Positions 24,462 to 50,599 of a stretch of DNA of 64,000 nucleotides are shown here, piece by piece. The stretch is from Candidatus Spongiisociaceae bacterium. GTDB lineage: Bacteria; Actinomycetota; Acidimicrobiia; Spongiisociales; Spongiisociaceae. The position numbers were made by a program, and so were the translations under genes. Each line of letters starts with the position of its first letter. Position 1 is the stretch's first letter. The DNA is taken from NCBI GenBank assembly GCA_965202665.1, contig OZ241841.1, forward strand, positions 1,184,001-1,248,000. Reading direction: 5' to 3'. The notes below the pieces were generated by a model. It worked only from the letters and a program-made list of their open reading frames with translations. It was not told the DNA's origin and did not search any database.

Positions 24462-24474
24462 CGACCCCCCCCCC

Positions 24475-31537: not shown

Positions 31538-32308
31538 TCAGCCGCCGCGGCGGGGAAGGGCGCGGGTGGCGGGGTCTATAACATGCAGGTCAGGCAAAGT
31601 GTCAGCGGCTAAAACAGCGGGGCGGGCCCGGTTGGAAGGAGTCACAATCAGAACAGCCTCCATCGAGGCGCAACACGAGTGGGACGGCCCGCCGCATGCA
31701 AATCGGAGAGAACCCGGGTCGCCATCACCGCGAACGGCAACTGCGGATCCTTCATCATCAACAACGCCGGGAGAGCCCCCGCGTCTGACGGCCGGTGGCG
31801 CACAAATCGAACAGAACCCCCACCGCGAGCGGCGCGAACGGTAACTGCTGGGTCTGATTGACCAGGATGAATTCCCTTCCCCCCCCCCCCGCTTCTACCT
31901 GCGACGCGGGATCACCCGCGTCTGCTGACCTGCCGCCATCGTATGCAAATCCGGAAGCCGCCCCGTCGCCAACACCCCCGCCCTCGCCATATTCGACGGA
32001 CCCGTCACCATCAACCCCATCGCCGCTGGGGAACGACCCGGCACGCCTGCTGGGTTCCCACCCCGCAGAGATCGCTGATGACCCCGGTTGCGAGAGTCCC
32101 GAAGACCGCCTTGTTGGAAGGACAGGTGACGAGAATTCCCCAACCCCCCCCCCCGTTACCTCCGGCGCGTCACCGCCCTCGTCGGTTGCGCCGGGCCCCT
32201 CGCGCACAGATCCGGCAACAGATCCGCCGCCAGCACCCCGAACACCGACATCCCCGACGGACTCGGAATCAGAATCGCCGTCTCGCGAAAACCCTTGCCC
32301 CCCCCCCC
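31538..32308 (-). repeat. Array C: six ~125-bp TRD-tip cassettes with three poly-G tracts (32298-32308 G11, 32144-32154 G11, 31879-31890 G12)
   Basis: Cassette peptides AILIPSPSGMSVFGVLAADLLPDLCARGPAQPTRAVTRRR*, GILVTCPSNKAVFGTLATGVISDLCGVGTQQACRVVPQRRWG*, GLMVTGPSNMARAGVLATGRLPDLHTMAAGQQTRVIPRRR*, FILVNQTQQLPFAPLAVGVLFDLCATGRQTRGLSRRC*, ALLMMKDPQLPFAVMATRVLSDLHAAGRPTRVAPRWRLF*, AVLIVTPSNRARPAVLAADTLPDLHVIDPATRALPRRGG*. Confidence 0.88.
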
Positions 32309-35300
32309 TAACGGAATTTAGGTCCGGCATTGCGTCGGACGCAAACGCAGTGTCAGATGTCCCCCTACCTGAACTGTTGGAAAAAGATATCGCCTCATCA
32401 ACTCTCTCCGCAGGAAACATCTTAGATATAGTTCGAACCGATGAAAGAATCAAGTCATCCTCATACAACCACAACTTTGTGAAAGGCCGATACAACACCT
32501 CCCGAATACGCCTCTCGTCAAACACAAGTCTCCTACCTTTCTTCAAAGTAGCCTTCAAAGCACCAGTCCATTTTATGGCACTCAGCGGAGAATCAAGCGT
32601 AGACTCTTCAGCAAAGGTTTCACCATAAATTTCCACACGAGCCAACACATCATTGTATTCTTCAATAAGACGTTGAACCTTTATCTCCAATCGTTCTCTG
32701 CTAAAAGAATATACGTAAGTATCAAGATTAGTGGCCAAACCCAACGCGTGAGAATGAACAGCGGCATTTCGATGTTTCTTAACACCGCATATTGGTAAAA
32801 GCTCCTCAAAGGTGCCATCAGACAGATTCACCCAATCATGCTTTGGGGTTACGGGTACTTCTTCTAAATCAGGATTAGTTATATCTTCCATTTCTTCTAG
32901 CCACTGCCATTTTTCCTCTCTGCTATAGTAATCTGGCACCTGAGCATAAAATAGTGAGGCGGGCACTCCTATTCTTTTAGTCGGATTTCTAACTAAAAAG
33001 GATATTTGAACACCGCTACGAGAGCCGCCTTTTCCACTTATTGCATCAAATAACACATCACCTTCCTTAGCTCGCTCTTCTCCTGATTTATAAGCATTAC
33101 CCCGTAAGTTAACAACATAGATAGATGTAAAATCGTCCCTTACTGCAGCCCTGGCTCCAGCCAAAGAAGGGCCGTCTGTCAAAGAATTAGGGTGCACCAA
33201 GCCAATAATAGAAGGGTGGTCTCCATGCAAAATTCTATCAGAGCACCAACGCAAAGCTTTGATATATAAATTTTGTCCAGCCTTGCCAATACCACGGCAG
33301 GTAATCTCCTTATGTTTAGCTCCGTACGTGTCAGAAACTCGATCACTGATAACAGGATATTCTAGCTTGGTAGTGTCGTCACCTGCTTGCTTAGCACCAG
33401 CCGACCAGGGGGGGTTAGCTAAAATTACAGTCATCGGAGTACTATCCTGTTCATATCGACCTTGGATATTTTCTCTGAAAGTATCAAGTTCCTCCTGCTT
33501 CGGGCTACTGAGGAAAGTATCAGTTAGTACTATTTTTGTATAAGGCTGATATATCACTTCTTTCTCAAGTCTTTCGGAGTCTCGGGAATGCTTTGCTTCC
33601 TCGATTTTGATAGCTGCTATATAGTAGGCCAATAGAATAAACTCGTTAGCATGTAGTTCATTTTCATACTTGCGGTCCAAATCTTCATAACTGATTAGAT
33701 AGTTATCATCCTCGTCCTTCATTTCAATTAGACGCGCTAGGTAAGTACCAGTACCAGCGAAAGGGTCTAAAATGTGTAGATTTTCGCTCCCAATGGACCT
33801 CCCGAACTCTTTCTGGCAAATGGCGGCTGCCGAACGGATCATGAAGTCCACTATCTGTACCGGTGTATACACAATCCCCACCCGTTTTACCGTTTCTTTC
33901 ATCGCTGACTGGAAGAATCCATCGTAGATTGCCCGTAGGATATCCACCTTTTCCGCGCTGGTTACCGCTCCGGCAAAAGCGGCCTCCATCTGCCGATAAG
34001 CGCGGGTCAGGGGTCGTAATTCCTCCTCAAATGACACCTTCAACGCCTGGAAGGTTTCAAGAAATCTTTCTATCTCTTGACTGACTGGATTCTGTTTGGC
34101 GAAGCCGCTACCAGCCAACATAACATCAAACACCGGGATGGTCACCACATGCTGGGCGATCATCTCCTGCGCTTGAGCGGAGGCGACATGATCACCAATA
34201 GAATCACGAATGCCCGCCAAAAACCTTTGAAAGGCATCCTTAGCAGGACCACCCTCAGCAATCAGGTTATTTATACGGGTCTGCACCTGACGGCAAATGT
34301 CCGCCGCCCGCTCACCCCAGCGGGGATACATATGCTTGTCGCCGACGATTTCCACCACCTTGGAGGCGATTTCTTGGTTGAGTTGGAACTGCAACTGTTG
34401 TTGCACCCTCTTGCCATTTCCTTCATCAACTCCCGGTCCAACCGGGAAGGAGCACACTCGCAACGGAGCGTTCTTCGCCCAGGCGGAGGCGTTGCTGACG
34501 TAATACTCCATCCGGGAATCATGGGAGCGCAAAGCCCGCACTACCTCCCACACAGTATGAAAGTCGGAAGCTTCCAACTTCTTCTTCGGGTCGGCGTCCT
34601 CCGGAACCACCACCGGAATGATGATGTAACCCTTGCGTTTGCCGGGGGCGGTGCGCATCGCCCGGCCCACCGCCTGAGTGATATCCACCGTGGAAGTACG
34701 ACTGTTCAGAAATATAACCGCGTCCAAGCTAGGAACATCCACTCCTTCGGTGAGCACCCTCGCGTTACTGAGAATCCGGCACACCGGCCTCCCATCCCCC
34801 TCCGCTCTCACATCCCTCAGTTGCTCTAAAAGGTCGGTGCGTTCCGCGGCCGGAGTGGAACCGTCAATATGATTTACATCCAACCTCAGGAATTCTGAAA
34901 AATCCTTCCCCCCCCCCCCATCTCCAACCATGTTGCCCTTTTGCCGGGTCAGGGCATCCACCACTTTCGGCCACACCATGGCCGCCGTCTGTGAAGTGCG
35001 CACCAAGTTGGTGAAAGCGATAGCCGAACGGGCTGGCTCTCCGCCGTCGGCAAAAATCTGGCCGGGAAACCGACCCGGTAAAACCTCGGTGGTGGCGGGC
35101 GTTGCCAGGGCATCCCAGCATCCGGCCAGCTTCACCGCATCATCCAAAGCTAGATTAGTAGTTTCATGCACCAAAACCTCATGGGACCACCCAGCGTTGG
35201 CTAGGGACTGCATATAGGCCTCTTCCGTAGCGGTTATTACCAGCACCTCGTAGTCGGACAGGTAGCCGTCTTCAACCGCCTCACTGAACTCCATCTCGTA

Positions 35301-36506
35301 AAACCGCTCCCCAAAAGTCGCCGTGTCGTCCATGCTGTAGGAATCCCCTTCGAAACCGGGGGCCTCTATCTTCTTCCTCTGCCTAGCCGTAAAAACACGC
35401 GGAGTGGCCGTCATATATAAACGTTTGCCGCCCCGGATGTGGGCGTCTTCGTGCACTATGCGGAACGGGGACACCCCCAAACCTTCTTTGGATTCTTCTA
35501 TGCCGGTGGTGCGGTGGGCTTCATCGCAGATGATCAAATCAAACCCCCACCCCTCCGCGGCCCGGTTTTGCGCTTCGGCAATTCTGGGGGAGGACTGATA
35601 CGTGGAAAACACCACCTGCATCGCATCCCCCGGCACCGGCTTCGCCAACTCTTTAGCCAACCGCGCCGGGTCGGTGGTTACCGGAATAGCCAACTCCGTT
35701 AAATCACCGGCCGTGTCCGCCTGCGCCGAGCCTTTCCGCCCCGCCGTGGTGTCAGAGCACACCCCCAGATAACGCAACGGCATCTCCCGTTGCCGTGACC
35801 ACTCCCGCATCGTCTGCCCAATCAACGCAATCGACGGCACCAAATACAACACCCGGCCACCCAAACCGGCCACCTTCTCCGCCGCCCGTAACGCCACCAA
35901 CGACTTACCCGTCCCACACGGCAAAATCAACTGCCCCCGATCCACATCCCGAAACTTCTCCGCAATATCCCGCACCGCGTCCTGCTGAAAACCATGCAAC
36001 CGATGCTTAGGAGCCGGTGCGATCTCCAGCAGGTCGGGGGTTTCCGCGAACTCCCGCCAGTCATCCACCCACCGGTCCATCTCACTGGTATGCAACACCT
36101 CGCACCGCGGCTCCGCCTTACGCAACTTCGCCAACCCCACCTGGGAAACCCTGGCCGTCGCCACCAACAGGCGAGAAGCGAAATCAGCCGTCCCCGACGC
36201 CCCCAGGAAACTGTCCACCCCGGCGGTGGAAACCTCCGTAGCCCAAAACTTGCACTGGATAGCGCACAACCCGCCCCCGTAAGCCGGAGTTTGCCGGGCC
36301 ACAATATCAACCCCAATGTCCCGCCCGTACCCCCGTTCTTCCCGCTCCGGCCACTCACCCCACAACCACACCTCCTCAAAACGCTCCCGACCATACTCAC
36401 CCGGATGAGCCCGCAACGCCCCCGCCACCAACCGCTCAAACCGCCGCCCCGCCCTCCACGGATCATCCCCCCCAAAACCCCCCAACACCCCATCCAAAAA
36501 CGGCAT
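31758..36506 (-). CDS. Split Type ISP R-M enzyme copy C; as assembled it reads through to cassette 4
   Basis: DIGVDIVA...AIQCK, LPCGTGKS, DEAHRTTG, TEGVDVP, DPFAGTG, ANPPW, YRPFTK; lacks the constant C-terminal domain; internal G12 at 34908-34919. Confidence 0.9.
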   Translation of the reverse strand: MPFLDGVLGGFGGDDPWRAGRRFERLVAGALRAHPGEYGRERFEEVWLWGEWPEREERGYGRDIGVDIVARQTPAYGGGLCAIQCKFWATEVSTAGVDSFLGASGTADFASRLLVATARVSQVGLAKLRKAEPRCEVLHTSEMDRWVDDWREFAETPDLLEIAPAPKHRLHGFQQDAVRDIAEKFRDVDRGQLILPCGTGKSLVALRAAEKVAGLGGRVLYLVPSIALIGQTMREWSRQREMPLRYLGVCSDTTAGRKGSAQADTAGDLTELAIPVTTDPARLAKELAKPVPGDAMQVVFSTYQSSPRIAEAQNRAAEGWGFDLIICDEAHRTTGIEESKEGLGVSPFRIVHEDAHIRGGKRLYMTATPRVFTARQRKKIEAPGFEGDSYSMDDTATFGERFYEMEFSEAVEDGYLSDYEVLVITATEEAYMQSLANAGWSHEVLVHETTNLALDDAVKLAGCWDALATPATTEVLPGRFPGQIFADGGEPARSAIAFTNLVRTSQTAAMVWPKVVDALTRQKGNMVGDGGGGKDFSEFLRLDVNHIDGSTPAAERTDLLEQLRDVRAEGDGRPVCRILSNARVLTEGVDVPSLDAVIFLNSRTSTVDITQAVGRAMRTAPGKRKGYIIIPVVVPEDADPKKKLEASDFHTVWEVVRALRSHDSRMEYYVSNASAWAKNAPLRVCSFPVGPGVDEGNGKRVQQQLQFQLNQEIASKVVEIVGDKHMYPRWGERAADICRQVQTRINNLIAEGGPAKDAFQRFLAGIRDSIGDHVASAQAQEMIAQHVVTIPVFDVMLAGSGFAKQNPVSQEIERFLETFQALKVSFEEELRPLTRAYRQMEAAFAGAVTSAEKVDILRAIYDGFFQSAMKETVKRVGIVYTPVQIVDFMIRSAAAICQKEFGRSIGSENLHILDPFAGTGTYLARLIEMKDEDDNYLISYEDLDRKYENELHANEFILLAYYIAAIKIEEAKHSRDSERLEKEVIYQPYTKIVLTDTFLSSPKQEELDTFRENIQGRYEQDSTPMTVILANPPWSAGAKQAGDDTTKLEYPVISDRVSDTYGAKHKEITCRGIGKAGQNLYIKALRWCSDRILHGDHPSIIGLVHPNSLTDGPSLAGARAAVRDDFTSIYVVNLRGNAYKSGEERAKEGDVLFDAISGKGGSRSGVQISFLVRNPTKRIGVPASLFYAQVPDYYSREEKWQWLEEMEDITNPDLEEVPVTPKHDWVNLSDGTFEELLPICGVKKHRNAAVHSHALGLATNLDTYVYSFSRERLEIKVQRLIEEYNDVLARVEIYGETFAEESTLDSPLSAIKWTGALKATLKKGRRLVFDERRIREVLYRPFTKLWLYEDDLILSSVRTISKMFPAERVDEAISFSNSSGRGTSDTAFASDAMPDLNSVRGGGQGFSRDGDSDSESVGDVGVRGAGGGSVAGSVREGPGATDEGGDAPEVTGGGVGEFSSPVLPTRRSSGLSQPGSSAISAGWEPSRRAGSFPSGDGVDGDGSVEYGEGGGVGDGAASGFAYDGGRSADAGDPASQVEAGGGGREFILVNQTQQLPFAPLAVGVLFDLCATGRQTRGLSRRC

Positions 36507-37207
36507 TACCGCTGATCTTCCAACGAGGGGGGCAGGCCGGCGATTATCTCCGCCGAACGGACGCTCACATAAACCAACCGCCGCAAATGGCGAATCAACT
36601 CATACGGATCCTTCTCCCACCGCCACCACCCATTCGGATCATCAGTGATGCCAGACGGCTTATCATGCTTATGCCGCAGACTGTCGATCGCCCAATCCAA
36701 CGGCGACCGGCCCGACACCGTATACTCCTGAGCCCGCTCCGGGATGCCGACCAACCGGCACCGCTCGTTGATATGCAACTCGGTGAGGTCTTTCTTCCAT
36801 TCACCGTCCTCGTCCTTGACTTTGTTCCACCGCATCTGTTTCTGAATCCGGTAGGCCTTCTGGTCAGCCCCCTGGTCGGGGAAACCGTCCACCAAAACAT
36901 CCACTCCCTCATACTCAGGACAGTTTTCGTATCCGATGTGCAAATCCATCAGTTCCCGCCCCGCCACCCGGAAGGCCTCAAAATCAGCGGCCAAAGGCAC
37001 ACGGGGCAGATTGCGTTGCAAATCGTTGCGGTAGCGTTTCCGCCAATCGGGGGCGTGCATCACCCCGTACAGATACTCCCAAATGTCGTCCTTGGTAATG
37101 GAAGGGTCCTCATAGCGGGTTTGGAACTCGCTCAGACACCAGTCGGTGATGTTGTCGGTGTCCTCCGTCATACCCTCCAAATCCAAGTCCAAACCCTGAT
37201 CCATCAT
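36506..37207 (-). CDS. Stand-alone Type ISP C-terminal domain (copy 2)
   Basis: DNITD...ITKDDIWEYLYGVMHAPDWRKRYRNDLQRNLPRVP...AGRELMDLHIGYE...VSGRSPLDW aligns with the last ~230 aa of 7756-12591; TAATG overlap with copy C; likely start MMDQ at 37207. Confidence 0.88.
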   Translation of the reverse strand: MMDQGLDLDLEGMTEDTDNITDWCLSEFQTRYEDPSITKDDIWEYLYGVMHAPDWRKRYRNDLQRNLPRVPLAADFEAFRVAGRELMDLHIGYENCPEYEGVDVLVDGFPDQGADQKAYRIQKQMRWNKVKDEDGEWKKDLTELHINERCRLVGIPERAQEYTVSGRSPLDWAIDSLRHKHDKPSGITDDPNGWWRWEKDPYELIRHLRRLVYVSVRSAEIIAGLPPSLEDQR

Positions 37208-37252
37208 TGCGGCGGCCTTCCCTTCTCCCAACCCCACAAAGGGGAGTACTCT

Positions 37253-37559: not shown

Positions 37560-37969
37560 CCGATCTCTGTCGCAGGCAAGAGGGGAGGACGCGGACAACG
37601 GAGTCGCGGGCATATAACCCGATTCTCGTTTCCGGCAATTTCTGTCACAAGCAAGGCAGGACAGGACGGCGGGGGGCGCAGGCATACCATCCAAATTCCC
37701 ATTCCTGATATTTCCTACCACAAACGGAAGGGAACACGAACAGCAGGGTCCGCAGGCATATCGTCCGGTTCTCGTTTCTGGTTTTTCCCCTCACAAGCGA
37801 GGGAGGACACGAACGGCGGGGGGCGCAGGCATACCATCCAAATTCCCATTCCTGATATTTCCTGTCACAAGCGAGGAAGGGCGCGGGCGGCGGGGGCGCG
37901 GGCATATCATCCGATTCTCGTTTCCGATATTTCCTACCAAGAGCGGGGGAGGGCGCGGGTGGCGGGGTC
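37560..37969. repeat. Degenerate tandem repeat, ~73-bp unit, 5-6 copies
   Basis: Units start CGC(A/G)GGCATA at about 37605, 37677, 37751, 37824 and 37897; units 2 and 4 share cgcaggcataccatccaaattcccattcctgatatttcct. Confidence 0.85.
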
Positions 37970-38700
37970 AATTACGTGCAGGTCGGGCAAGGCGTCAGTG
38001 GCTAAAACGGCCGGGCGGGAACGGTTGGAGGGAGCCACGATCAGAATCGCCTCCATCGAGGCGCAACACGGGTGGGGCGGCCCGCCGCATGCAAATCGGA
38101 GAGAATCCGGGTCGCCATCACCGCGAACGGCAACTGCGGATCCTTCATCATCAACAACGCCGGGGGAGCCCCCGCGTCTGGCGGCCGGTGGCGCACAAAT
38201 CGAACAGAACCCCCACCGCGAGCGGCGCGAACGGTAGCTGCTGGGTCTGATTGACCAAGATGAATTCCCTTCCCCCCCCCCCCGCTTCTACCTGCGACGC
38301 GGTATCACCCGCGTCTGCTGACCTGCCGCCATCGTATGCAAATCCGGAAGCCGCCCCGTCGCCAACACCCCCGCCCTCGCCATATTCGACGGACCCGTCA
38401 ACATCAACCCCGTCGTCGGGGAACGACCCGGCACGCCTGCTGGGTTCCCACCCCGCAGAGATCGCTGATGACCCCGGTTGCGAGAGTCCCGAAGACCGCC
38501 TTGTTGGAAGGACAGGTGACGAGAATTCCCCAACCCCCCCCCCCGTTACCTCCGGCGCGTCACCGCCCTCGTCGGTTGCGCCGGGCCCCTGGCGCACAGA
38601 TCCGGCAACAGATCCACTGCCAGCACCCCGAACACCGACATCCCCGACGGACTCGGAATCAGAATCGCCACCTCGTGAAAACCCTTGCCCCCCCCCCCCC
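37934..38700 (-). repeat. Array B: six TRD-tip cassettes with three poly-G tracts (38688-38700 G13, 38534-38544 G11, 38272-38283 G12)
   Basis: Same six cassettes in the same order as array C; cassette stops at 38546, 38404, 38288, 38151, 38041 and 37934. Confidence 0.88.
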
Positions 38701-41700
38701 TTGATTGAGGTCTGGCACCACCCCAGCGGCGGACAGATTATCAGACGCACCCCTCATAGAACCACTCGCCACATCAATCCCCTCAACCTCCGCCTCACGG
38801 GGGAACATCGCGGACACCGTTTTCACCGACGAAAGAATCAGGTCATCCTCATACAACCACAACTTCGTATAAGGCCTATACAACACCTGCCTAATACGAC
38901 CCTCATCAAACACAATACGCCTGCCCTTCCGCAAAGACCCCTTCAACGTATCCGTCCATTTAATCGCATCCAACCTAGTATTTGCAGTAACTTCCCCAAT
39001 GTCCTCCCCATGTATCTCTACTAAATCCAATGTCCTGTCATAAATATCGATCAGCCGCTTAACCTTTTGAATAAGCATTTCACGGCTGAACGAATAAACA
39101 TATGTGTCACAAGTAGTTGTTACACCACGAGCATGCTTAGCGACAGCTACTTGCCCATTTTCCTTTTGAATATCACAAACCGCAAGCAGATTATCAAATG
39201 TTCCATCCGACAGATTTACCCAATCGTGGCGGGGATTTACCGGAACTTCCTCTAGCTGTGAGCTCGTCACATCCCAAATTTTTTCCAACCATTCCCACTT
39301 ATCATCCAAACTCATATAATCAGGAACTTGCGCATAATGAAGGTTGGCAGGCTGGCTGATGTCTTTAGATGGATTTCTTACCAGAAAAGTAATTTGAACA
39401 CCGTTGCGTGTTCCTTCGCCAAAAACGGTGTCTCCTTCTCGTTGCCTTTCATCACCCTGTTTAAAGGCGTTGCCTCGCAGATTAATCACATAGATGTCAG
39501 TGAACTCATCCCGTAACGTTCCCCGAACACCGGCCAACGAAGTGCCGTCGGCCAAAGAGTTAGGATGGACAAGCCCGACAATAGCGGGGTGGTCGCCGCG
39601 TTGCGTATTCGGTAAAATCCGATCCGTGCACCAACGCAAGGCCTTCACATACAGATTACCCATAGCGTTGCCTCCGGGCGACTGTCCTACCACTTCTTTA
39701 TGTTTGGCTCCGTAGGTTTTCTCCACCCGTAGGCCAACATCGTGATATTCAAGATTAGGGTTGTCATCGCCCGCCAACTTCTGACCGGATGACCAAGGCG
39801 GATTGGATATTATCACAGTCATCGGAGTAGCATCCTGTTCAAGACGAACTCGTATATTGTCGCCTAAAACATCAAACCCTTCCTGCTCAGGACTAGCCAA
39901 CAACGTATCAGTAAACACTATTTTTTTGAAAGGGTCGTATTTGACTTTACTATCAGACTTTTCTCCATCCCGAAAATGCTTAGATTCTTCTATTTTGAGA
40001 GCGGCGATGTAGTAGGGTAACAGGATAAACTCGTTGACATGCAGTTCTTGTTGATATTTGCGGTCCAGATCTTCAGTGCTTATAAGGTAGTTGCCATCTT
40101 CATCTTTCATCTCTATCAGACGAGAAATGAAAGTCCCGGTGCCAGCGAAAGCATCTAAGATATGTATATTTTCACTACCTATGGATCTCCTGAACTCTTT
40201 TTGACAGATAGCAGCCGCTGAGCGTATCATAAAGTCCACTATCTGCACCGGAGTGTATACTATCCCAACCCGCTTCACCGTTTTTTTCATAGCCGCCTGG
40301 AAAAACCCCTCATAGATTTCTCGCAGAATATCCACCTTTTCGACACTAGATACCGCCCCGGCGAATGCGGCCTCCATTTGTCTGTAGGCGCGGGTTAGAG
40401 GTCTTAGCTCCTCCTCGAACGATACATTCAACTTACGGAATTTTTTGAGTAGCCTTTCTATTTCTTTGCTTACTGGATTCTGCTCGGAGAAACCGCTTTC
40501 AGCCAGCATTACATTGAACACCGGGATGGTGACCACATGCTGAGCGATCATCTCCTGAGCTTGCTCTAAAGTAACGTGATTCCCAACCGACTGACGGATG
40601 CCTTTCAAGAAACGTTGGAAGGCATTCTCGGCAGGGCCGCCTTCGGCTATCAGGTGGTTGATACGGGTTTGCACCTGGCGGCAGATGTCAGCCGCGTGCA
40701 CTCCCCAGCGGGGATACATTTGCTTGTCGCCGATGATTTCCACCACTTTGGATGCAATTTCTTGGCTGAGTTGGAACTGCAACTGATGTTGCACCCGCTC
40801 GTCGTAACCTTCTTCTTCAACATCCCGGCCCAACCGGCAAGTGACCACCCGTAGCGGAGCGTTTTTCTTCCAGGCGGAGGCGTTGCTGACGTAATGTTCC
40901 ATCCGGGAGTCGTGGGAACGCAAAGCCCGCACCACCTCCCACACAGTCTGAAAGTCGGAGGCTTCCAGCATCTTCTGCGGGTCGGCGTCCTCCGGGACTA
41001 CTACAGGAATAATGATGTAGCCTTTGCGTTTGCCGGGGGCGGTGCGCATCGCCCGGCCCACCGCTTGGGTTATATCCACCGTGGAAGTGCGGCTGTTCAG
41101 AAAAAGCACCGCATCCAAGCTGGGAACATCCACCCCTTCGGTTAGCACCCGGGCGTTGCTGAGAATCCGGCACACCGGCCTCCCGGATTCACCCCCGCCC
41201 CCTGCCCTCCCCCTCAGTTGCTCTAGCAGATCAGTCCGTTCCGCGGCCGGAGTGGAACCGTCAATATGATTTACATCCAACCGCAAAAATCTATTTTCGC
41301 CACCCCCCCCCCCGTTCCCTACCAAGTCTCCCCTTTGCCGAGTCAGGGCGCCTACCACTTTCGGCCACACCATGGCAGCCGTCTGCGAGGTGCGCACCCG
41401 GTTGGTGAAAGCGATGGCCGAACGGGCAGGCTCGCCGCCCTCGGGGAAAATCTGGCCGGGAAACCGACCCGGCAAAACCCCGGTGGTGGCGGGAGTGGCC
41501 AGGGCATCCCAGCATCCAGCCAGTTTCACCGTATCGTCCAAAGCCAAATTGGTGTCCTCGCGCACTATCATCTCGTGAGCGAAATCGGCGTTGGCCAAAG
41601 ACTGCAAATAAGCCTCGGCGGAGGCGGTGATAACCAGCACCTCGTAGTCGGACAGATAACCGCCTTCCACCGCCTCGCTGAACTCCATTTCATAAAACCG

Positions 41701-42906
41701 TTCCCCGAAAGTCGCCGCGTCGTCCATGCTGTAGGAGTCCCCTTCGAAACCGGGGGCCTCTATCTTCTTCCTCTGCCGAGCGGTGAACACACGAGGGGTG
41801 GCCGTCATATACAAACGCTTGCTACCCCGGATGTGGGCGTCTTCGTGCACTATGCGGAACGGGGACACCCCCAGCCCTTCTTTGGATTCTTCGATGCCGG
41901 TGGTGCGGTGCGCCTCATCGCAGATAATCAAATCAAACCCCCACCCCTCCGCGGCCCGCTGTTGCGCCTCGGCAATTTTGGGGGAGGACTGATACGTGGA
42001 AAACACCACCTGCATCGAATCCCCCGACACCGGCTTAGACAACTCTTTAGCCAGCCGCGCCGGGTCGGTGGTTACCGGAATAGCCAACTCAGTTAAATCA
42101 CCGGCTATGTCCGCCTGCGCCGAGCCCTTCCGCCCCGCCGTGGTATCCGAGCACACCCCCAGATAACGTAGCGGCATTTCCCGTTGCCGGGACCATTCCC
42201 TCATCGTCTGCCCAATCAACGCAATCGACGGCACCAAATACAACACCCGGCCACCCAACCCCGCCACCTTCTCCGCCGCCCGCAACGCCACCAACGACTT
42301 ACCCGTCCCACACGGCAAAATCAACTGCCCCCGATCCACATCCCGAAACTTCTTCGCAATATCCCGCACCGCGTCCTTCTGAAACCCATACAACCGATGC
42401 TTAGGAGCCGGTGCGATCTCCAGCAGGTCGGGGGTTTCCGCGAACTCCCGCCAGTCATCCACCCACCGGTCCATCTCACTGGTATGCAACACCTCGCACC
42501 GCGGCTCCGCCTTACGCAACTTCGCCAACCCTGTCCGGGAAACCCGCGCCGTCGCCACTAACAGGCGCGATGCAAAATCAACCGTGCCCGACGCGCCCAA
42601 GAAACTGTCCACACCGGCGGTGGAAACCTCCTTTTCCCGGAACTTGCATTGAATGGCGCACAACCCGCCCCCGTAAGCCGGGGTCTGGCGGGCCACAATA
42701 TCAACCCCGATATCCCGCCCGTATCCCCGTTCTTCCCGTTCCGGCCACTCACTCCACAACCACACCTCCTCAAACCGCTCCCGCCCGTACTCACCCGGAT
42801 GAGCGCGCAACGCACCCGCCACCAACCGCTCAAACCGCCTCCCCTGAACCACCGACTTCGGATCATCCGCCACCAAACCTCGCAACACCTCCTGCAAATA
42901 CGGCAT
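38659..42906 (-). CDS. Split Type ISP R-M enzyme copy B; as assembled it ends in its own tip (PDLNQGGGGARVFTRWRF*)
   Basis: Same motif set (AIQCK, LPCGTGKS, DEAHRTTG, DAFAGTG, SNPPW); close paralog of copy C; internal G11 at 41303-41313. Confidence 0.9.
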   Translation of the reverse strand: MPYLQEVLRGLVADDPKSVVQGRRFERLVAGALRAHPGEYGRERFEEVWLWSEWPEREERGYGRDIGVDIVARQTPAYGGGLCAIQCKFREKEVSTAGVDSFLGASGTVDFASRLLVATARVSRTGLAKLRKAEPRCEVLHTSEMDRWVDDWREFAETPDLLEIAPAPKHRLYGFQKDAVRDIAKKFRDVDRGQLILPCGTGKSLVALRAAEKVAGLGGRVLYLVPSIALIGQTMREWSRQREMPLRYLGVCSDTTAGRKGSAQADIAGDLTELAIPVTTDPARLAKELSKPVSGDSMQVVFSTYQSSPKIAEAQQRAAEGWGFDLIICDEAHRTTGIEESKEGLGVSPFRIVHEDAHIRGSKRLYMTATPRVFTARQRKKIEAPGFEGDSYSMDDAATFGERFYEMEFSEAVEGGYLSDYEVLVITASAEAYLQSLANADFAHEMIVREDTNLALDDTVKLAGCWDALATPATTGVLPGRFPGQIFPEGGEPARSAIAFTNRVRTSQTAAMVWPKVVGALTRQRGDLVGNGGGGGENRFLRLDVNHIDGSTPAAERTDLLEQLRGRAGGGGESGRPVCRILSNARVLTEGVDVPSLDAVLFLNSRTSTVDITQAVGRAMRTAPGKRKGYIIIPVVVPEDADPQKMLEASDFQTVWEVVRALRSHDSRMEHYVSNASAWKKNAPLRVVTCRLGRDVEEEGYDERVQHQLQFQLSQEIASKVVEIIGDKQMYPRWGVHAADICRQVQTRINHLIAEGGPAENAFQRFLKGIRQSVGNHVTLEQAQEMIAQHVVTIPVFNVMLAESGFSEQNPVSKEIERLLKKFRKLNVSFEEELRPLTRAYRQMEAAFAGAVSSVEKVDILREIYEGFFQAAMKKTVKRVGIVYTPVQIVDFMIRSAAAICQKEFRRSIGSENIHILDAFAGTGTFISRLIEMKDEDGNYLISTEDLDRKYQQELHVNEFILLPYYIAALKIEESKHFRDGEKSDSKVKYDPFKKIVFTDTLLASPEQEGFDVLGDNIRVRLEQDATPMTVIISNPPWSSGQKLAGDDNPNLEYHDVGLRVEKTYGAKHKEVVGQSPGGNAMGNLYVKALRWCTDRILPNTQRGDHPAIVGLVHPNSLADGTSLAGVRGTLRDEFTDIYVINLRGNAFKQGDERQREGDTVFGEGTRNGVQITFLVRNPSKDISQPANLHYAQVPDYMSLDDKWEWLEKIWDVTSSQLEEVPVNPRHDWVNLSDGTFDNLLAVCDIQKENGQVAVAKHARGVTTTCDTYVYSFSREMLIQKVKRLIDIYDRTLDLVEIHGEDIGEVTANTRLDAIKWTDTLKGSLRKGRRIVFDEGRIRQVLYRPYTKLWLYEDDLILSSVKTVSAMFPREAEVEGIDVASGSMRGASDNLSAAGVVPDLNQGGGGARVFTRWRF

Positions 42907-43595
42907 TACCGCTGGCCTTCCAACGAGGGGGGCAGGCCGGCGATTATCTCCGCCGAACGGACGCTCACATAAACCAACCGCCGCAAATGGCGAATCAACT
43001 CATACGGATCCTTCTCCCACCGCCACCACCCATTCGGATCATCAGTGATGCCAGACGGCTTATCATGCTTATGCCGTAGGCTGTCGATGGCCCAATCCAA
43101 CGGCGACCGGCCCGACACCGTATACTCCTGAGCCCGCTCCGGGATGCCAACCAACCGGCACCGGTCGTTGATATGCAACACGGTGCGGTCAACCTTCCCC
43201 TTGCCGTCCTCGCCTTTGGCCCGCTCCCACCGCATCTTCTTCTTAATCCGGTAGTCCTCCGGGTCGGGGGAACCGTCCACCACAACTTCCACCCCTTCAT
43301 ATTCGGGACAGGTCTCGTATCCGATGTGCAAATCCATCAGTTCCCGCCCCGCCGCCCGGAAGGCCTCAAAGTCGGCGGCCAAAGGCACCCGGGGCAAATT
43401 GCGTTGCAAATCGTTGCGGTAGCGTTTCCGCCAGTCGGGGGCGTGCATCACCCCGTACAGATACTCCCAAATGTCATCTTTGGTAATGGAAGGGTCCTCA
43501 TAGCGGGTTTGGAACTCGTTCAGACACCAGTCAGTGATGTTGTCGGTGTCCTCCGTCATACCCTCCAAGCCCAAACCCTGGTCCTGGCCCATCAT
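42906..43595 (-). CDS. Stand-alone Type ISP C-terminal domain (copy 1)
   Basis: Near-identical to 36506-37207; AGGAGG RBS; TAATG overlap with copy B. Confidence 0.88.
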   Translation of the reverse strand: MMGQDQGLGLEGMTEDTDNITDWCLNEFQTRYEDPSITKDDIWEYLYGVMHAPDWRKRYRNDLQRNLPRVPLAADFEAFRAAGRELMDLHIGYETCPEYEGVEVVVDGSPDPEDYRIKKKMRWERAKGEDGKGKVDRTVLHINDRCRLVGIPERAQEYTVSGRSPLDWAIDSLRHKHDKPSGITDDPNGWWRWEKDPYELIRHLRRLVYVSVRSAEIIAGLPPSLEGQR

Positions 43596-43889: not shown

Positions 43890-44506
43890 TCAAAAACGGG
43901 GAAGGGCGCGGGTGGCAGGGTCTATCACGTGCAGGTCGGGCAAAGTGTCTGTTGCTAAAACGGCCGGGCGAGCCCGGTTGGAAGGAGCCACAATCAGAAT
44001 CGCCTCCACCGAGGCAGAACCCGGGTGGGGCGGCCCGACGCGAGCACCGCGAACGGCAACCGCTGGGGCTGATTGGCCAAGACCGATCCCACCCGCTACC
44101 TCCAGCGCAGTATCACCCGCGTCTGCTGACCGGCCGCCATCGTATGCAAATCCGGAAGCCACCCCGTCGCCAACACCCCCGCCCTCGCCATATTCGACGG
44201 ACCCGTAAACATCAGCCCCGTCGCCGGGGAACGACCCGGCAGGCCTGCTGAGTTCCCACCGCGCAGAGATCGCTGATGACCTGGGCTGCGAGAGTCCCGA
44301 AGACTGCCTTGTTCGACGGACAGGTGATGAGAATTCTTGGCTCCCCCCCCCCCCGCTACCTCTAGCGCGGTATCACCCTCGTCTGTTGCGAACCCTTGAT
44401 CGCCGCCAGGTCCGTCAGCCATGCCGCCGCCAGGGCCTGGAAAATCATATTGTTGCCGTTGCTGATCAGAATCACCTTCGCGTGACGACCCTTGCCCCCC
44501 CCCCCC
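43890..44506 (-). repeat. Array A: four intact TRD-tip cassettes plus one deleted remnant, two poly-G tracts (44495-44506 G12, 44343-44354 G12)
   Basis: VILISNGNNMIFQALAAAWLTDLAAIKGSQQTRVIPR*, ILITCPSNKAVFGTLAAQVISDLCAVGTQQACRVVPRRRG*, LMFTGPSNMARAGVLATGWLPDLHTMAAGQQTRVILRWR*, a cassette 4/5 chimeric remnant, AILIVAPSNRARPAVLATDTLPDLHVIDPATRALPRF*. Confidence 0.85.
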
Positions 44507-47500
44507 TAACTGAGTTAAGATCTGGTTGCACATCGTGCGCGATGGGGGTATCGACTGTACCTCGACCGGATCCGCTGGTGAAAGAAACCGCTTCAGTGAT
44601 TTCGCTATGGGGGAACAGTCGGGATGCGCTTCTCACCGATGATAAAATACGGTCATCCTCGTACAACCATAGTTTAGTAAACGGCCGATACAGTACTTGG
44701 CGGATACGAGCAGGGTCAAATACTATTTTTCTGCCTCTTCGCAGTGAATCTTGGATACGGGCAATGCTCCGTAGATATAGTGAATCCTCCACCAACTTCT
44801 CAATCCATTGTTTAGTTGGATGAGTATGGTTTCTTACTTGCAGAAGATACGCATCGTATTCGTCTAATAAATCTCTTATTTTATCTTCCAGGGCTTGCCG
44901 ATTGTATGAGTAGGCCATGAAATCACAGGCGGTAGCTATTCCCAGCGCACTCTTTTGAGAAACTGCTGGTTCTTGATTTGCACCTACAGTGCATATAGGC
45001 ACCATTTTTTCATATGTTCCATCAGACAGGTTTACCCAATCATGTTTTGAGGTCACCGGTACTTCTTTCAATTGATCACTGGTTATATCGCCTAGAAACT
45101 CTAGCCAGTCCCACTTTTGATTTAGTTTTAGGTAATCCGGCACTTGAGCGTAACGGAGAATGGCAGGCCCTTTCAAGTCCTTGCGAGGATTTCGAACCAA
45201 AAATGTTATCTGTGTCCCAAGCATGGCACCAGCTCCGAACACTTTGTCTCCTTCTTTTTGCCATTCTTCACCCGCTTTTTTGGCATTACCTCGTAGGTTA
45301 ACTACATAGATATCAGTAAATTCATCACGAAGAGATGCTCTCATTCCAGCTAAACTGGTCGCATCAGTTAAAGAATTGGGGTGAACAAAACCAATCATTT
45401 TCCCTCGGTTAGCAGGTTCTTTATCTAGTTGATCGGTTGCCCATCTTATAGCCTGTACAAATAAGTTTCCAGCGGCATTTCCACCAAGTCTTAGACCAAG
45501 AGCTTTATGAGATTTATTATAAGTTTCCCTAACTCGCTCTGCTACTTTAGGGAACTGTAATTTGCCAACTTGTCCAGTTCTATTGGCCCCAGAACCCCAA
45601 GGTGGGTTACTAAAAATAATATCCACAGGAGTCTGATCCAAACGGGCCGCTCTTCCAACATTACCCTCAGCATCATCTAATTCGCGTTGTTGACCCCGTC
45701 CACCCCCCAAATTGCCGGAAAGGAAAGTATTCTGCAAAACCAGCCCCTCCCAGGGTTGGTAGTCAGGATCCTGTTCATCACGCCGGTTAATTCTCTTTCG
45801 GTAAGTTTCCTCCACTTGGAGGGCGGAAACATAGTATGCGAGCATAACGATTTCTGATCCATGCATATTTTTCCATACATTCTCTAGCGCGTTGTCGGGT
45901 ACAATAGGTTTTCCATCCCTGCCAAAGGCATCTAGTAAACGCGTGGGGAAGGTACCGGTTCCACAGAACGGATCATAGAACTGAACATATTGATCAGAAA
46001 TATGAACACCAAATTCTTTTTCACAGATAGCGGCAGCCGATTTAATAATAAAATCAACTATTTGAATAGGTGTGTAGACTATACCAAGTTGTTTTATCGC
46101 GTTAGGCATAGCTTCCTTAAAGAATCCATCATATATTTCCCGAAGGACATCTACCTTTTTATCGGCATCTCCAGCTGCATCAAACACCTCTTTCATGCGA
46201 TCATAAGCTCGTTGCAGAGGTGCACAATCACCTTGAAAATTTATTCCCTGCATTTCCAGCGTTTTGCGAAGAGTGTCAATACGTCGACTAATAGGATTCA
46301 CCTGTGCAAAATGCCCGTGGAACATTGCATCGAAAACGGGAATAGTTACAATATGTTGAGCGACCATTTCTTCGGTACTATCGGGATCAACCTGACCACC
46401 CATTACCTTCCCTAACTCATAAACTAACTCTTCAAATGCTTGTTGACACACCGGATCGGTAAGAGAAGATTTTAGTCGCGAGCGAACGTCGGCGCAAACC
46501 TTTGCCGCCTGCTGACCCCATCGAGGCCACATTTTCTTGTCTCCAACTTTATCTACTATTACCGATGCCAACTGCTGGGTGAGTTGAAATCGCAACTGTT
46601 CCACTTCCCGTTGGGTTCGTTTGGTTTTTTTCCCATTGCCAATAACCCTTACATTGAACTTGCCTTTTAGCTGGCATATATCGGGGTCGGACACCCAATA
46701 GTCAACGCGGTCATCGTGCGATCGTAAAGCGCGAACAACGTTGGCTACGTTGGCGAATTCGCTTTGTGCAAGTTTCCGGTTAGGATCTTCTTCTTGCTCA
46801 TCTATCACAACGGGAATAACTATGTGCCCTTTAGTTTTGTGATCAGTGGTACGCATCGCCCGCCCTACCGCTTGAGTAATGTCTACTTCCGATGTTTTAG
46901 GATCTAAGAAAATAACCGCATCTAGGCCGGGAACGTCTACCCCTTCAGTTAGAACTTTCACATTTGTCAAAATCTCACAAATGGGCGATTCCGCATCCTC
47001 ATCTGTTGTCGGTGGTGCATTAGTAACAGTTCGCAACCGGCTTATACGTTTAGTGCGTTCCGCAGCGGGAGTATTGCCATCCACATGATTGACTTTTAAC
47101 TGAAGATAACGGTTAGGTTCTTCGTCAATAGCCGATTGGCGGGAAGCCAGCTCCGCCCATACCATGGCTACTTCTCGGCTTCGGGGAATTTTGTTAGCGT
47201 AAAGCAGGGCGGTACGGGTGGGCCACCCTAATTTTATATCTGTTTTTCCGGCAGGGCGGTGAGGGTCCACCTTTTCAGAATATGGTGTGGACAGGGCATC
47301 CCAAGCACCAGCTAATCGTACTCCATCGCTTAATGACAAGGCTGGCTCTCGCTCTCCAGTTTCAGGGTTTTTCTTACCTTGAGGTTCGTAACCCGGTATG
47401 TCCGCCCATTCCATACCTATATGATCGGAATGGGCCGCCTGCCATCGAAAGCCACGACTAGCTGCTACTACATGTATCTGATAGTCAGACAGAACCGGGC

Positions 47501-48767
47501 GACCATCCGTACGTAGGTTGATCTTCTCTGAAGTTTTACTATCAATCCTTTTACCATCCACAGCCTCCGCGAAAGACAGCTTATAGAAGACCGGCCCGAA
47601 CACACCTTCATCATCCATAGAATAAGATTGCCCATCATAATGCTTATTTTCTATACGACTCTTTTGATGTTCAGTAAAAACCCGGGGGGTAGCGGTCATA
47701 AAAAGCCTTTTGCGACAAGGGATTTGATCATTGCTCAAACCAGTCTGAAATAAGCTACCTTCAGTTTTGTTAATGCCGGTAGTTCGATGCGCCTCATCAA
47801 AAAATGCTAAATCGAACATAAACCCTGGAATAGATTTGATAGATTCTGCGACCATCGGTGACGACTGATATGTACAGAATACGGCTCGCGTCGTTCTCTT
47901 CGCAATGGGCTTTTTAAGAGCGATCGTTAGATGATTGGGATCAGTAGTTACAGGAGCAAATAGTTCGGTGAGCCGACGACGGTCTTCACGACCAACAGAA
48001 CTATCGGAACACACCGCCAAAAACTCTAGCGGCAGAGTTTTGTTGGCGGACCATTCTTTCATACTTTGATCCATCAATGCTAAAGAAGGTACTAGAAATA
48101 ATACAGTTGCTCCCCCCCCCCCCCGTTCCGTCGCCCATAACGAGACTAGCGTCTTTCCGGTACCACATGGCAAAATTAGCTGTCCTCGATCAAAGTCTCT
48201 AAACCCATTATATATTTTATCGATAGCGTCCCGTTGAAATGGATGCGGAGTTTTTGGATGGCTTCGGATAACTAACTTGTTAGGCTCGTCGATAAGAGTA
48301 CGCCAGTCTTCCACCCACCCGTCCATTTCAACAGTGTGCAGAACCTTCCCATCTCGATGGCGGTGTAATGCTTCCTCCCCTTTTCGAGAAACCGGAGCGG
48401 TGGCCACCAACAAAATAGACCGGAACAGATCCGATGAAGGGCGGGAATGTGTGATAAAACGGTCCACCGCTCTGGTAGATATCTCGTTGCGATGAAACTT
48501 GCACTGAACAGCGCACAGGCCGCCACCGTACGCATCGGTTTGCTCCGCCACCAAATCTATACCATCGTCGCCAGCCGCGTACCCGTGCCTCTCCCGATCC
48601 GGCCACTCCCCCCACAACCAAACGTCCCGGAACCGATCCTTGCCCCATTCTCCCGGGTGGGCTAGAAAGGCGGCTTTAACTAATTCCTCAAAGTCACGAC
48701 CTTTTTCCACGGCGGTTGCCGTACGGTCTTCTATCATCTCCAATGCCTCAGTCAAATAACCCATCAT
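44472..48767 (-). CDS. Split Type ISP R-M enzyme copy A (divergent); ends PDLNSVRGGGARVVTRR*
   Basis: AAGGAGG RBS before MMGY; DDGIDLVA...AVQCK, LPCGTGKT, DEAHRTTG, DPFCGTG, SNPPW; internal G13 at 48112-48124. Confidence 0.9.
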   Translation of the reverse strand: MMGYLTEALEMIEDRTATAVEKGRDFEELVKAAFLAHPGEWGKDRFRDVWLWGEWPDRERHGYAAGDDGIDLVAEQTDAYGGGLCAVQCKFHRNEISTRAVDRFITHSRPSSDLFRSILLVATAPVSRKGEEALHRHRDGKVLHTVEMDGWVEDWRTLIDEPNKLVIRSHPKTPHPFQRDAIDKIYNGFRDFDRGQLILPCGTGKTLVSLWATERGGGGATVLFLVPSLALMDQSMKEWSANKTLPLEFLAVCSDSSVGREDRRRLTELFAPVTTDPNHLTIALKKPIAKRTTRAVFCTYQSSPMVAESIKSIPGFMFDLAFFDEAHRTTGINKTEGSLFQTGLSNDQIPCRKRLFMTATPRVFTEHQKSRIENKHYDGQSYSMDDEGVFGPVFYKLSFAEAVDGKRIDSKTSEKINLRTDGRPVLSDYQIHVVAASRGFRWQAAHSDHIGMEWADIPGYEPQGKKNPETGEREPALSLSDGVRLAGAWDALSTPYSEKVDPHRPAGKTDIKLGWPTRTALLYANKIPRSREVAMVWAELASRQSAIDEEPNRYLQLKVNHVDGNTPAAERTKRISRLRTVTNAPPTTDEDAESPICEILTNVKVLTEGVDVPGLDAVIFLDPKTSEVDITQAVGRAMRTTDHKTKGHIVIPVVIDEQEEDPNRKLAQSEFANVANVVRALRSHDDRVDYWVSDPDICQLKGKFNVRVIGNGKKTKRTQREVEQLRFQLTQQLASVIVDKVGDKKMWPRWGQQAAKVCADVRSRLKSSLTDPVCQQAFEELVYELGKVMGGQVDPDSTEEMVAQHIVTIPVFDAMFHGHFAQVNPISRRIDTLRKTLEMQGINFQGDCAPLQRAYDRMKEVFDAAGDADKKVDVLREIYDGFFKEAMPNAIKQLGIVYTPIQIVDFIIKSAAAICEKEFGVHISDQYVQFYDPFCGTGTFPTRLLDAFGRDGKPIVPDNALENVWKNMHGSEIVMLAYYVSALQVEETYRKRINRRDEQDPDYQPWEGLVLQNTFLSGNLGGGRGQQRELDDAEGNVGRAARLDQTPVDIIFSNPPWGSGANRTGQVGKLQFPKVAERVRETYNKSHKALGLRLGGNAAGNLFVQAIRWATDQLDKEPANRGKMIGFVHPNSLTDATSLAGMRASLRDEFTDIYVVNLRGNAKKAGEEWQKEGDKVFGAGAMLGTQITFLVRNPRKDLKGPAILRYAQVPDYLKLNQKWDWLEFLGDITSDQLKEVPVTSKHDWVNLSDGTYEKMVPICTVGANQEPAVSQKSALGIATACDFMAYSYNRQALEDKIRDLLDEYDAYLLQVRNHTHPTKQWIEKLVEDSLYLRSIARIQDSLRRGRKIVFDPARIRQVLYRPFTKLWLYEDDRILSSVRSASRLFPHSEITEAVSFTSGSGRGTVDTPIAHDVQPDLNSVRGGGARVVTRR

Positions 48768-48925
48768 CGCTCCTCCTTGTCCTCCTGTTCCTAATGTCCC
48801 TTGGCAATAGCAGTGCTTCCACGACGGACGCGGATCTCGCCAAAAAACCAACCGGTGGCATTGTGTTCCCCGTCAATCCCTCCAGCCACAGCCTAGTAAT
48901 ATTCATTATACCATCTCTTCTTAAT

Positions 48926-50599
48926 TCAACCCAGACCGCAGACGGTTTCCTCGGTTGCTTGGTCTATTTTTTTTAGGTCTGAGTCGTCGTTTAGCAGCTC
49001 CCAGCGTAGGAGGGAGAGTGGGAGGTTGCCGTTTTGCCATAGGAAATCGTGGAATGAACGCAACGAGAAGTTTTTCCCCTGCGCTTGTTTGGCGTCGTGC
49101 AGCAGGCGTATTATTTCCAGTTTGCCCACCATGTAGCTCATCGCCAGGCCGGGGCAGGCTACGTAGAGGGCGGTTTCCTCCAAGGCGGTTTGTTCGTCGA
49201 TGGGGATCATCTTCATAAACGTCTCGACGCCTTCGGCGGGGGAGATTTCGCCGGTCACCAAACCCACGTCCACGATGGTGCGCAGGCACCGCAGGCGGTT
49301 CATGTTGTGGACGGCCTGTTGTGACCAGGGGGCGTCGTCGAACAGGCCCGCCTGCAGCATCATCTCCTCGTTGTAAAAAGCGATGCCCTCGTTGGGAACG
49401 GAATCGTAGTAGCGGCGGCGGAGCGGGTTGGGGTGCGCCCAGGAGGTGGTCAGTTGTTTGAAATGGGCTCCCTCGTGCACGATTCCCAGCCGGGGATCAT
49501 GCGCGTTGGCGTAGGCGAAATACTGCAGTTCCCCCGCCGGGGAGATGGTGTAGGACACCCCGTCCTGGTGCAAGCGCAGGTCGGAGGTCAGGTCGTTGAA
49601 CACCCCCAGCCAGCGCAACCGCTCCACATAGGGGGGCATCACCGCCGTGTGATAACGGCGCAACGCGTCCGGTTGCGACAGCAGGTCGTGCCGCTCGTAG
49701 AATTCCCGCACCTCCTGTTCGTTCCGTATCTGGGTTTCCACCTGTTCTTCGGCGGAGGCGGCCCGCGTCGGGCCCGACCGGGTCCGGTTGCGGTTGGCGG
49801 CCATCTCCTCCCAGACCGAAGCCCGTTCCAGTTCCCGCCGGGCGTTTAGGAGCAGGACTTCCGGTTGATGGGGCAACAGCGCCACATTGCGCAGATACCA
49901 CAGGAAAGCCTCCCGCCCCACCGGTTCGGCGGAGGGCATCTGCGGCAGAAAACCGGCCAGCCACTCCCGGAAGCCGACCAGGGCCCGAGCGGCGACCTCC
50001 CCCCGGGCCGCCAATTCGGAGCGGGCGGCGCCGTCGAAAAGGGGGGACAGCGCCTCCAGGGCCTGCGGCAGGTCGGAGTCTATGTTGCGCAGCAGTTTCA
50101 AAGCCAACTCGGCCAGTTGCCGGGTTCCCGCCCGGGACAGGTTTTCCCGGGCGGTCTCCAACTGCCCGCCCACGTAGTCCAGTCGGAACAGGACGCCCTC
50201 CTGCCGTTCCCGGTCGAAAGGCGGCAACGGCAACATCAGGTCGTAGGCCGGCCCCAGGGCCTGATGCAGTTGCATGACCGCGTCCCGCTCCCAGCCCGCC
50301 AGCCTCCCCACCTCCCATTCCACCCGGCGGATGGCGGAACCCACCAGCCGGTAATCCACTTGCGTTCCCACCGGGGCGCCCGCCGCGTCCAAACTCCGCC
50401 AGCGTTCCAGAAACTCCCCGGCCCGGGCCAGCCGTTCCCGCGCCGAAGCCCGGTCGAAGCGGGGCCGCCAGTCCGGGGGATGATCCACGCGGGGGATGTC
50501 GTCGGCGCTGCGGAAAGAAGAGGCGATCCGCCACTCCCAAAACTCTTCCCCCAGTTCCCGCACCGCCTGATGCGGATCGGGCGCCGGACCCCCGTTCAC
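48926..50599 (-). CDS. DUF885 family protein (HExxH-like)
   Basis: VHEGAHF.Q, NEGIAFYNEE, R.IVDVGL, PG.A.SY.VGKLEI, FSLRSFHD.L...G.LP; GTG start overlaps the hydantoinase B stop. Confidence 0.82.
   Translation of the reverse strand: MNGGPAPDPHQAVRELGEEFWEWRIASSFRSADDIPRVDHPPDWRPRFDRASARERLARAGEFLERWRSLDAAGAPVGTQVDYRLVGSAIRRVEWEVGRLAGWERDAVMQLHQALGPAYDLMLPLPPFDRERQEGVLFRLDYVGGQLETARENLSRAGTRQLAELALKLLRNIDSDLPQALEALSPLFDGAARSELAARGEVAARALVGFREWLAGFLPQMPSAEPVGREAFLWYLRNVALLPHQPEVLLLNARRELERASVWEEMAANRNRTRSGPTRAASAEEQVETQIRNEQEVREFYERHDLLSQPDALRRYHTAVMPPYVERLRWLGVFNDLTSDLRLHQDGVSYTISPAGELQYFAYANAHDPRLGIVHEGAHFKQLTTSWAHPNPLRRRYYDSVPNEGIAFYNEEMMLQAGLFDDAPWSQQAVHNMNRLRCLRTIVDVGLVTGEISPAEGVETFMKMIPIDEQTALEETALYVACPGLAMSYMVGKLEIIRLLHDAKQAQGKNFSLRSFHDFLWQNGNLPLSLLRWELLNDDSDLKKIDQATEETVCGLG

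Follow-up and report, generated by a model that had tools for sequence, protein, structure and literature searches.

Serial repeats and overlapping C-terminal cassettes in split Type ISP restriction-modification genes: a candidate multi-level switch of DNA specificity

Repeat-driven phase variation is usually seen as ON/OFF or two-state, and multi-allele switching of specificity is credited to recombinases. Type I hsdS shufflons, for instance, work by DNA inversion of whole TRDs. In the hsdS gene of N. gonorrhoeae NgoAV a simple repeat is said to alter both protein length and specificity, with two states, truncated and full length. The closest precedent for the locus described here is the two-state frameshift switch of the H. 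pylori Type IIG enzymes Hpy99XIV (JHP1272) and HpyAXVI (HP1353-HP1354), where the part of the account of Krebes et al. that treats these genes describes an ON/OFF run together with a second run (PMC3936762). Through this second run, according to the same account, a TRD-like C-terminal domain is appended and the recognised motif altered (PMC3936762).

Judged by its sequence our locus appears to work in the same way, with an upstream homopolymer placed as the predicted ON/OFF switch and a downstream repeat adding a C-terminal paralogue of the base-reading part of the TRD, yet its helicase, its split TRD and its multi-level tree set it outside that group. The H. pylori enzymes are Type IIG with two specificities and one switch, whereas here helicase-bearing Type ISP genes carry 3-7 cassettes, three frames are used per node, cassettes overlap, a stop-free bypass exists and the rest of the TRD lies in a separate gene. 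Several specificities from one locus recall the SpnD39III/cod hsdS shufflon of S. pneumoniae, for which up to six alleles are reported; shufflons invert whole TRDs but in our locus the DNA order need not change. The change of protein length by a simple repeat, and by inference of specificity too, is shared with repeat-truncated hsdS genes of the NgoAV type, which differ in having neither alternative copies nor overlapping frames. LlaGI and LlaBIII (PDB 5FFJ, 4XQK; Kulkarni et al.) resemble our genes in domain order and Pfam content, and the cassette corresponds to the LlaGI hairpin 1347-1358 plus Loop VI 1365-1374, but both enzymes are single polypeptides with one Loop VI and the available text on them describes no repeats or cassettes (PMC4872093). 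No multi-level, overlapping-frame version was found in full-text searches of the literature or in the available text of a 2025 review (PMC12707154), subscription papers and supplements aside.

Split Type ISP genes and the frame tree of their cassettes

Within the 64,000-nt stretch that we analysed (the window) three Type ISP genes lie in tandem on the minus strand, named here A (31.5-36.5 kb), B (37.9-42.9 kb) and C (43.9-48.9 kb), and the cassettes under study sit behind B, the middle one (Table 1). An earlier, sequence-only reading of this DNA lettered the copies in the opposite direction, in transcription order, so that its "B versus C" is B versus A in our labels. Pfam matches place Mrr nuclease, SF2 helicase, coupler, N6-adenine MTase and ISP TRD in this order in all three genes, the N-part of B running through the TRD to Loop VI, and the catalytic motifs, which we take to be D...QxK, Walker A, DEAH and NPPW, are intact in the translations. 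The PF18135 match ends at model position 147-152 in each N-part, and positions 165-339 form separate upstream ORFs for A and B and are absent next to C. None of the three is thus the single polypeptide that defines Type ISP and the locus is not a strict member of that class; only a paralogue at 7756-12591 is unsplit.

That paralogue codes for 1611 aa and has LlaBIII and LlaGI as its best PDB sequence matches; a DUF222-HNH gene (12732-14036) comes after it. These four were the only ISP genes found in the 2.77-Mb genome. The titles of the records with the nearest related loci name Ca. Spongiisociaceae and other Acidimicrobiia, and where metagenome runs containing much of the window carry a label, it is sponge or marine; from these the host is probably a sponge-associated actinobacterium.

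In relatives the order of C-terminal-domain ORF and then gene B is kept. Gene C has no such ORF directly upstream (48851-48926), although a C-like gene in the relative L035 has one, and C may borrow the partner-gene product of A or B. By lineage the C-terminal-domain gene is found upstream of the N-part, divergent from it or downstream of it (L037, L039, L040, L042, L065, L079), a variable placement that fits action in trans. Long GA repeats were seen within the separate C-terminal-domain gene in four relatives (L063:1059, L066:1143, L091:1838, L117:2100) and are possibly a second ON/OFF switch.

Table 1. Genes, cassettes and homopolymer runs of the locus (positions in the window)
Feature	Position	Strand	Remarks
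Type ISP gene A, N-part	31758..36506	-	read-through via bypass frame as assembled; 1582 aa, ends in cassette 4
Type ISP gene B, N-part	38659..42906	-	1415 aa; as assembled ends in cassette 0
Type ISP gene C, N-part	44472..48851	-	~44% identical to B
C-terminal-domain ORF coupled to gene A	36506..37237	-	separate ORF
C-terminal-domain ORF of gene B	42906..43595	-	PF18135 model 165-339; stop overlaps gene B start
Cassette 0 of B	38659..38781	-	native hairpin + Loop VI + last strand; switch 1 inside tail
Switch 1 of B, G13	38688..38700	-	finish cassette 0 / cassette 1 / bypass
Cassette 1 of B	38546..38677	-	
Switch 2 of B, G11	38534..38544	-	cassette 2 / cassette 3 / bypass
Cassette 2 of B	38404..38529	-	both other frames without stops
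Cassette 3 of B	38288..38407	-	one other frame without stops
Switch 3 of B, G12	38272..38283	-	cassette 4 / 5 / 6
Cassette 4 of B	38151..38267	-	both other frames without stops
Cassette 5 of B	38041..38160	-	one other frame without stops
Cassette 6 of B, terminal	37934..38053	-	stops in both other frames
Cassette array of A, 7 cassettes	31538..32400	-	switches G11 32298-32308, G11 32144-32154, G12 31879-31890
Cassette array of C, 5 reachable cassettes	43890..44600	-	switches G12 44495-44506, G12 44343-44354
Cassette 4/5 hybrid of C, unreachable	44006..44089	-	deletion remnant; only linker into cassette 6 now
G12, helicase part of A	34908..34919	-	likely ON/OFF switch
G11, helicase part of B	41303..41313	-	likely ON/OFF switch; in the shifted frames a stop follows after 3 and 9 codons
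G13, helicase part of C	48112..48124	-	likely ON/OFF switch
G13, helicase part of unsplit paralogue	8475		likely ON/OFF switch

The cassettes, of about 40 codons each, follow a TRD helix that ends in "FP" and are arranged in blocks split by runs of G11-13; each starts within the last part of its predecessor, shifted to the -1 frame. We enumerated the run lengths of A, B and C modulo 3. Every G-run has three exits, one per frame: one opens the following cassette, another the cassette beyond that, and the third is a bypass free of stops that runs on to the next G-run, such that n runs address 2n+1 cassettes, and a complete cassette followed by a stop was reached by 7/7 length classes in A, 7/7 in B and 5/5 in C. 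The cassettes need neither a start nor an RBS of their own because each is an alternative C-terminus that is in frame from the upstream gene for one poly-G class. Gene A as assembled passes cassettes 1-3 as a linker rich in Gly, Asp and Ser. Array C is without run 3 and most of cassettes 4-5, and its bypass frame still lands in register on cassette 6.

Across eight arrays the frames were stop-free wherever the tree requires it (53/53) and carried stops in 34 of the 39 unneeded frames, counts that are not independent since the arrays are kin, from a tree that was first seen in the window itself, and with many of the stops in unneeded frames dictated by the encoded protein (an open frame then has null P = 0). 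By synonymous recoding, as a per-cassette product, the probability that all required frames of B's five cassettes are open by chance is about 0.002-0.01. Compared with synonymous recodings that are free of stops, 7/8 required bypass frames had a lower hydrophobicity, one of them marginally, a hint that the bypass linkers are polar. After array B, at 37623-37968, lie five direct repeats of 72-74 nt in two alternating types; at the end of several of them one frame looks like the final strand of cassette 6, and blastn of array B gave no other copies in the genome.

Purifying selection and conservation of the arrays

The sequence-only reading had held that purifying selection acts on each cassette in that cassette's reading frame. 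Its statement that cassette 6 differs among the copies mainly at third positions, with few replacements, is borne out by variable columns of 5/0/16 by codon position (P = 7e-5) and by 18 variable codons, 13 of them synonymous and 5 replacement (V/I, T/A, A/S, A/T, T/A); all the codon pairs that it listed are present. Between A and B cassettes 4-5 carry exactly the changes it gave, CTG/TTG, TTA/CTA, CGT/CGC twice and ACT/ACC plus S/P and V/I, 5/7 of them synonymous (P = 0.018). At the cassette 2/3 junction the indel was confirmed, with a length of 3 nt, and the preservation of all three frames that had been read from it turned out to be central, the frames other than that of the cassette serving as stop-free bypass linkers.

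A dN/dS comparison in each frame had been proposed as the check on this view, and selection was found in the cassette frame only, with neither a value near 1 there nor equal constraint in all frames. Pooled Nei-Gojobori estimates for the cassette frame were 0.23 for A versus B (P = 7e-5; other frames 0.96/3.4) and 0.16 for B versus C (P = 4e-6; other frames 1.24/2.1). Taken alone and within the window, cassette 1 (2 synonymous and 3 replacement codons) and cassettes 2+3 (9 synonymous, 8 replacement; P = 0.09) gave non-significant results. With five arrays from four related genomes added, dN/dS was 0.14-0.27 per cassette family, each with P < 0.004, and two sets of disjoint pairs that included other genomes gave 0.17 and 0.19 (P ~1e-25 and 2e-28). 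Most likely the cassettes are translated part of the time, as had been suggested; each is in frame for one poly-G class, and copy A as assembled ends in cassette 4. The unreachable 4/5 hybrid of C had 2 synonymous and 8 replacement codons, where the reachable cassettes had 19 synonymous and 9 replacement (Fisher P = 0.023), small numbers in which one of the eight replacements, A/L, matches two related arrays and is possibly not decay in C; by this count the hybrid appears to be decaying in its old frame.

To place the arrays in a wider set we scanned by cassette-3 alignment, which gave 14 metagenome and 47 genome loci, 50/61 with an upstream anchor (the 11 without were dropped); 53 arrays plus the three of the window, minus L085 with its N gaps, made up the 55 arrays tallied, mostly from sponge-associated Acidimicrobiia. 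In these, 295/305 outcomes end in a cassette and 277/285 detected cassettes are reachable. Exact 2n+1 trees were present in 42/55 arrays, where 1, 2 or 3 repeats go with 3, 5 or 7 cassettes (8, 19 and 15 arrays), and the other 13 have extra repeats, missed cassettes or insertions. The switch units are of 1, 2, 4 or 5 nt (G, C, GA/AG, CA/AC, 4-mers, 5-mers), and a search of the 55 arrays for units of 3 or 6 nt gave none. On a quick tree of 56 rows the type of the first-switch repeat changed 26 times (minimum 6; shuffled mean 33), differing even between well-supported sister rows, while a repeat stays at the first node. In many loci this first repeat precedes the first cassette, so that no cassette is the default. 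The assembled end states of the 55 arrays were a distal cassette in 34, the first in 18 and none in 3, a spread that is soft because many of the genomes may be long-read assemblies with miscalled run lengths. Cassette order and number vary between loci.

When a profile of 72 cassettes, tuned to this clade, was run against 400 evenly drawn Actinomycetota genomes it gave, besides this genome, one match in a long open frame and no arrays. A two-switch array lies at L116:6547-7120 on a 450-kb contig titled Thermodesulfobacteriota, which points either to transfer between phyla or to an error of binning. Remnants of cassettes, detached or interrupted, lie next to insertions or truncated partner genes at L103:8002-8198, L109:1358-1635 and L120:5400-6880.

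Loop VI as the exchanged part and the proposed switch

By sequence match the cassette consists of an LlaGI-type hairpin, Loop VI and the strand that follows, and over the same segment LlaBIII and LlaGI can be aligned with the unsplit paralogue. In the alignment of the paralogue with the cassette-ending rows the Asp of a D-L motif is invariant, and the residue after D-L aligns with LlaBIII N1360 (there the residue after D-V) and LlaGI H1368. As described in the available text on these structures, LlaBIII N1360 and LlaGI H1368, with Loop VI G1372 and Q1373, read target position +3, and the LlaGI hairpin 1347-1358 packs on Loop VI (PMC4872093). The first Loop VI residue in 278 cassettes was His (122), Cys (70), Ala (36), Asn (19), Ser (16) or Lys (15); these families recur in shuffled order between loci, and the three base-contacting positions of Loop VI are conserved in each cassette family and change from one family to the next. 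Of the window cassettes, three carry His at the +3-reading position and three carry Cys. Since the exchanged piece matches Loop VI, which reads +3, homology makes a change of specificity the likely output. The Asn loop of cassette 0 would be expected to read A, like that of LlaBIII, and the His..Gly-Gln loop of cassette 3 to read G, like that of LlaGI. Seven loops for one base position are not obviously usable, and one possibility is degenerate or +2 recognition.

Structure prediction was of weak value and the models add little. In the AlphaFold2 model of the A read-through (mean pLDDT 55.6) cassette 4 showed a three-strand pattern at pLDDT 46-58, from an alignment biased by already pairing cassette 4 with the cassettes of homologues, while the unfinished cassette 0 and the linker came out as coil. 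In a control model of B the cassette 0, complete there, was likewise given as three strands, with pLDDT 61-67. Foldseek and VIA matched the A read-through to DrdV, LlaGI and LlaBIII over residues 82-188 only, short of the cassettes, and a complex prediction of TRD core, C-terminal-domain protein and cassette 4 scored 0.02, which permits no verdict.

Runs of G or C in the genome number 96 of 8 nt, one of 9, none of 10 and 75 of at least 11, and 12/13 long runs in the window are within the four ISP genes. A C13 run at 24465, outside these genes, is a candidate for a further contingency locus. No MutS domain was found in the 94%-complete genome and NucS was found. Run lengths do vary between samples. 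In the best-matching sample the Logan contigs (X1, X2) span run 1 of B without difference from the assembly, which supports the latter, and only the assembled allele was seen at this switch, in contigs that drop rare variants. Contigs of other samples differ at run 1: X3 has a B-type run one base shorter, and from loose ends the A-type run of X3 and the C-type run of X7 are shorter too. All four ISP genes (4/4) also have a run of G11-13 in the helicase part, where shifted frames stop within 3-50 codons, and some relatives are frameshifted at the matching runs; this placement points to a likely ON/OFF control.

Going beyond what we observed, namely the architecture and its frame logic, the selection and conservation, and run lengths that differ from sample to sample, we propose with good confidence that the cassettes are alternative C-termini of a split Type ISP enzyme and that slippage of the repeats likely switches the ending, and thereby likely the DNA target. 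It also seems likely to us that the arrays amount to a recombinase-free multiplexer, in which serial repeats and triple-overlapping frames act as a ternary address for 2n+1 interchangeable DNA-reading loops, and to a natural library of Type ISP specificities that experiments could address. Under this proposal replication slippage would change the run lengths heritably, and skipped cassettes would be translated as a polar, unstructured loop that is looped out. The terminal cassette would then dock in the slot for the TRD hairpin and Loop VI, displacing the unfinished cassette 0; displacement by an added C-terminal copy has a precedent in the H. pylori enzymes, in the relevant part of their description (PMC3936762). 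The separate C-terminal domain would complete the TRD in trans and so leave the C-end free to vary, and a new Loop VI would alter recognition at about target position +3, for methylation and cutting alike.

Competing explanations and implications

The arrays might instead be read per molecule, by slippage of RNA polymerase or ribosomal frameshifting, giving each cell a mixture of specificities and no heritable switching. This requires identical open frames and selection and agrees with the single allele in the contigs of the best-matching sample, but run lengths vary between samples and genomes, and repeat units of 4 and 5 nt, which occur among the switches, are better suited to replication slippage. 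We think such reading unlikely as the whole explanation, and it may co-occur with heritable switching. Rather unlikely, too, is that the cassettes are translated and leave the DNA target unchanged, tuning activity or stability or evading a phage inhibitor while the rest of the TRD does the recognising. Several cassettes do have the same residue at the +3-reading position, and the hairpin is proposed as structural in LlaGI in the available text on that enzyme (PMC4872093); against this, the swapped piece includes Loop VI, the base-contacting positions are family-specific and the H. pylori precedent alters specificity.

A role of the cassettes as silent donors, recombined or gene-converted into the expressed position as in an hsdS shufflon and under selection only then, has a low probability in our view. 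It would suit the locus-dependent order and number of cassettes, the loss of cassettes 4/5 from C by deletion at shared sequence and the arrays of A and B being ~95% identical versus ~58-66% for the MTase-TRD upstream (fixed 400-nt blocks). Not predicted by it, however, are the stop-free bypass frames, the constant step of -1, the presence of a repeat at each node, the 2n+1 rule and the decay of the lone unreachable cassette. No inverted repeats flanking the arrays were present among the 25 longest of 190, and no recombinase-family match among the 15 window ORFs scanned. Recombination evidently reshuffles and homogenises the arrays over evolutionary time, which leaves their frame design unexplained. 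Very improbable is a set of separate small peptides made by reinitiation and bound in trans, an idea that draws on the enzyme being split already and on an ATG near the start of cassettes 5 and 6 in A and B, but the cassette-6 ATG is not conserved in C or the relatives, and the repeats and bypass frames would be left without a role. Decayed duplication debris, to which the missing RBS and start codons might point, is refuted, as the sequence-only reading had argued, by constraint in the cassettes' own frame (dN/dS 0.14-0.27 in every family), by open required frames and by a design intact in dozens of genomes.

If our proposal of heritable switching by repeat slippage were correct, a gene could select among up to seven outputs by its repeats alone, with all three frames serving as coding sequence or linker. 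Annotation pipelines would label such genes truncated or assign them nonsense tails. The Type ISP recognition code could not be reduced to simple rules in the available text on LlaGI and LlaBIII (PMC4872093), and with about 280 natural Loop VI cassettes, carried by near-identical scaffolds, it becomes directly testable. For the organism, the three tandem genes would offer 7 x 7 x 5 combinations of loops, ON/OFF control aside, which would be a strong form of bet-hedging for a cell that meets phage and incoming DNA in the dense microbiome of a sponge. The multiplexer would have persisted in several families of sponge-associated Acidimicrobiia even as the chemistry of its switch repeats was replaced many times.
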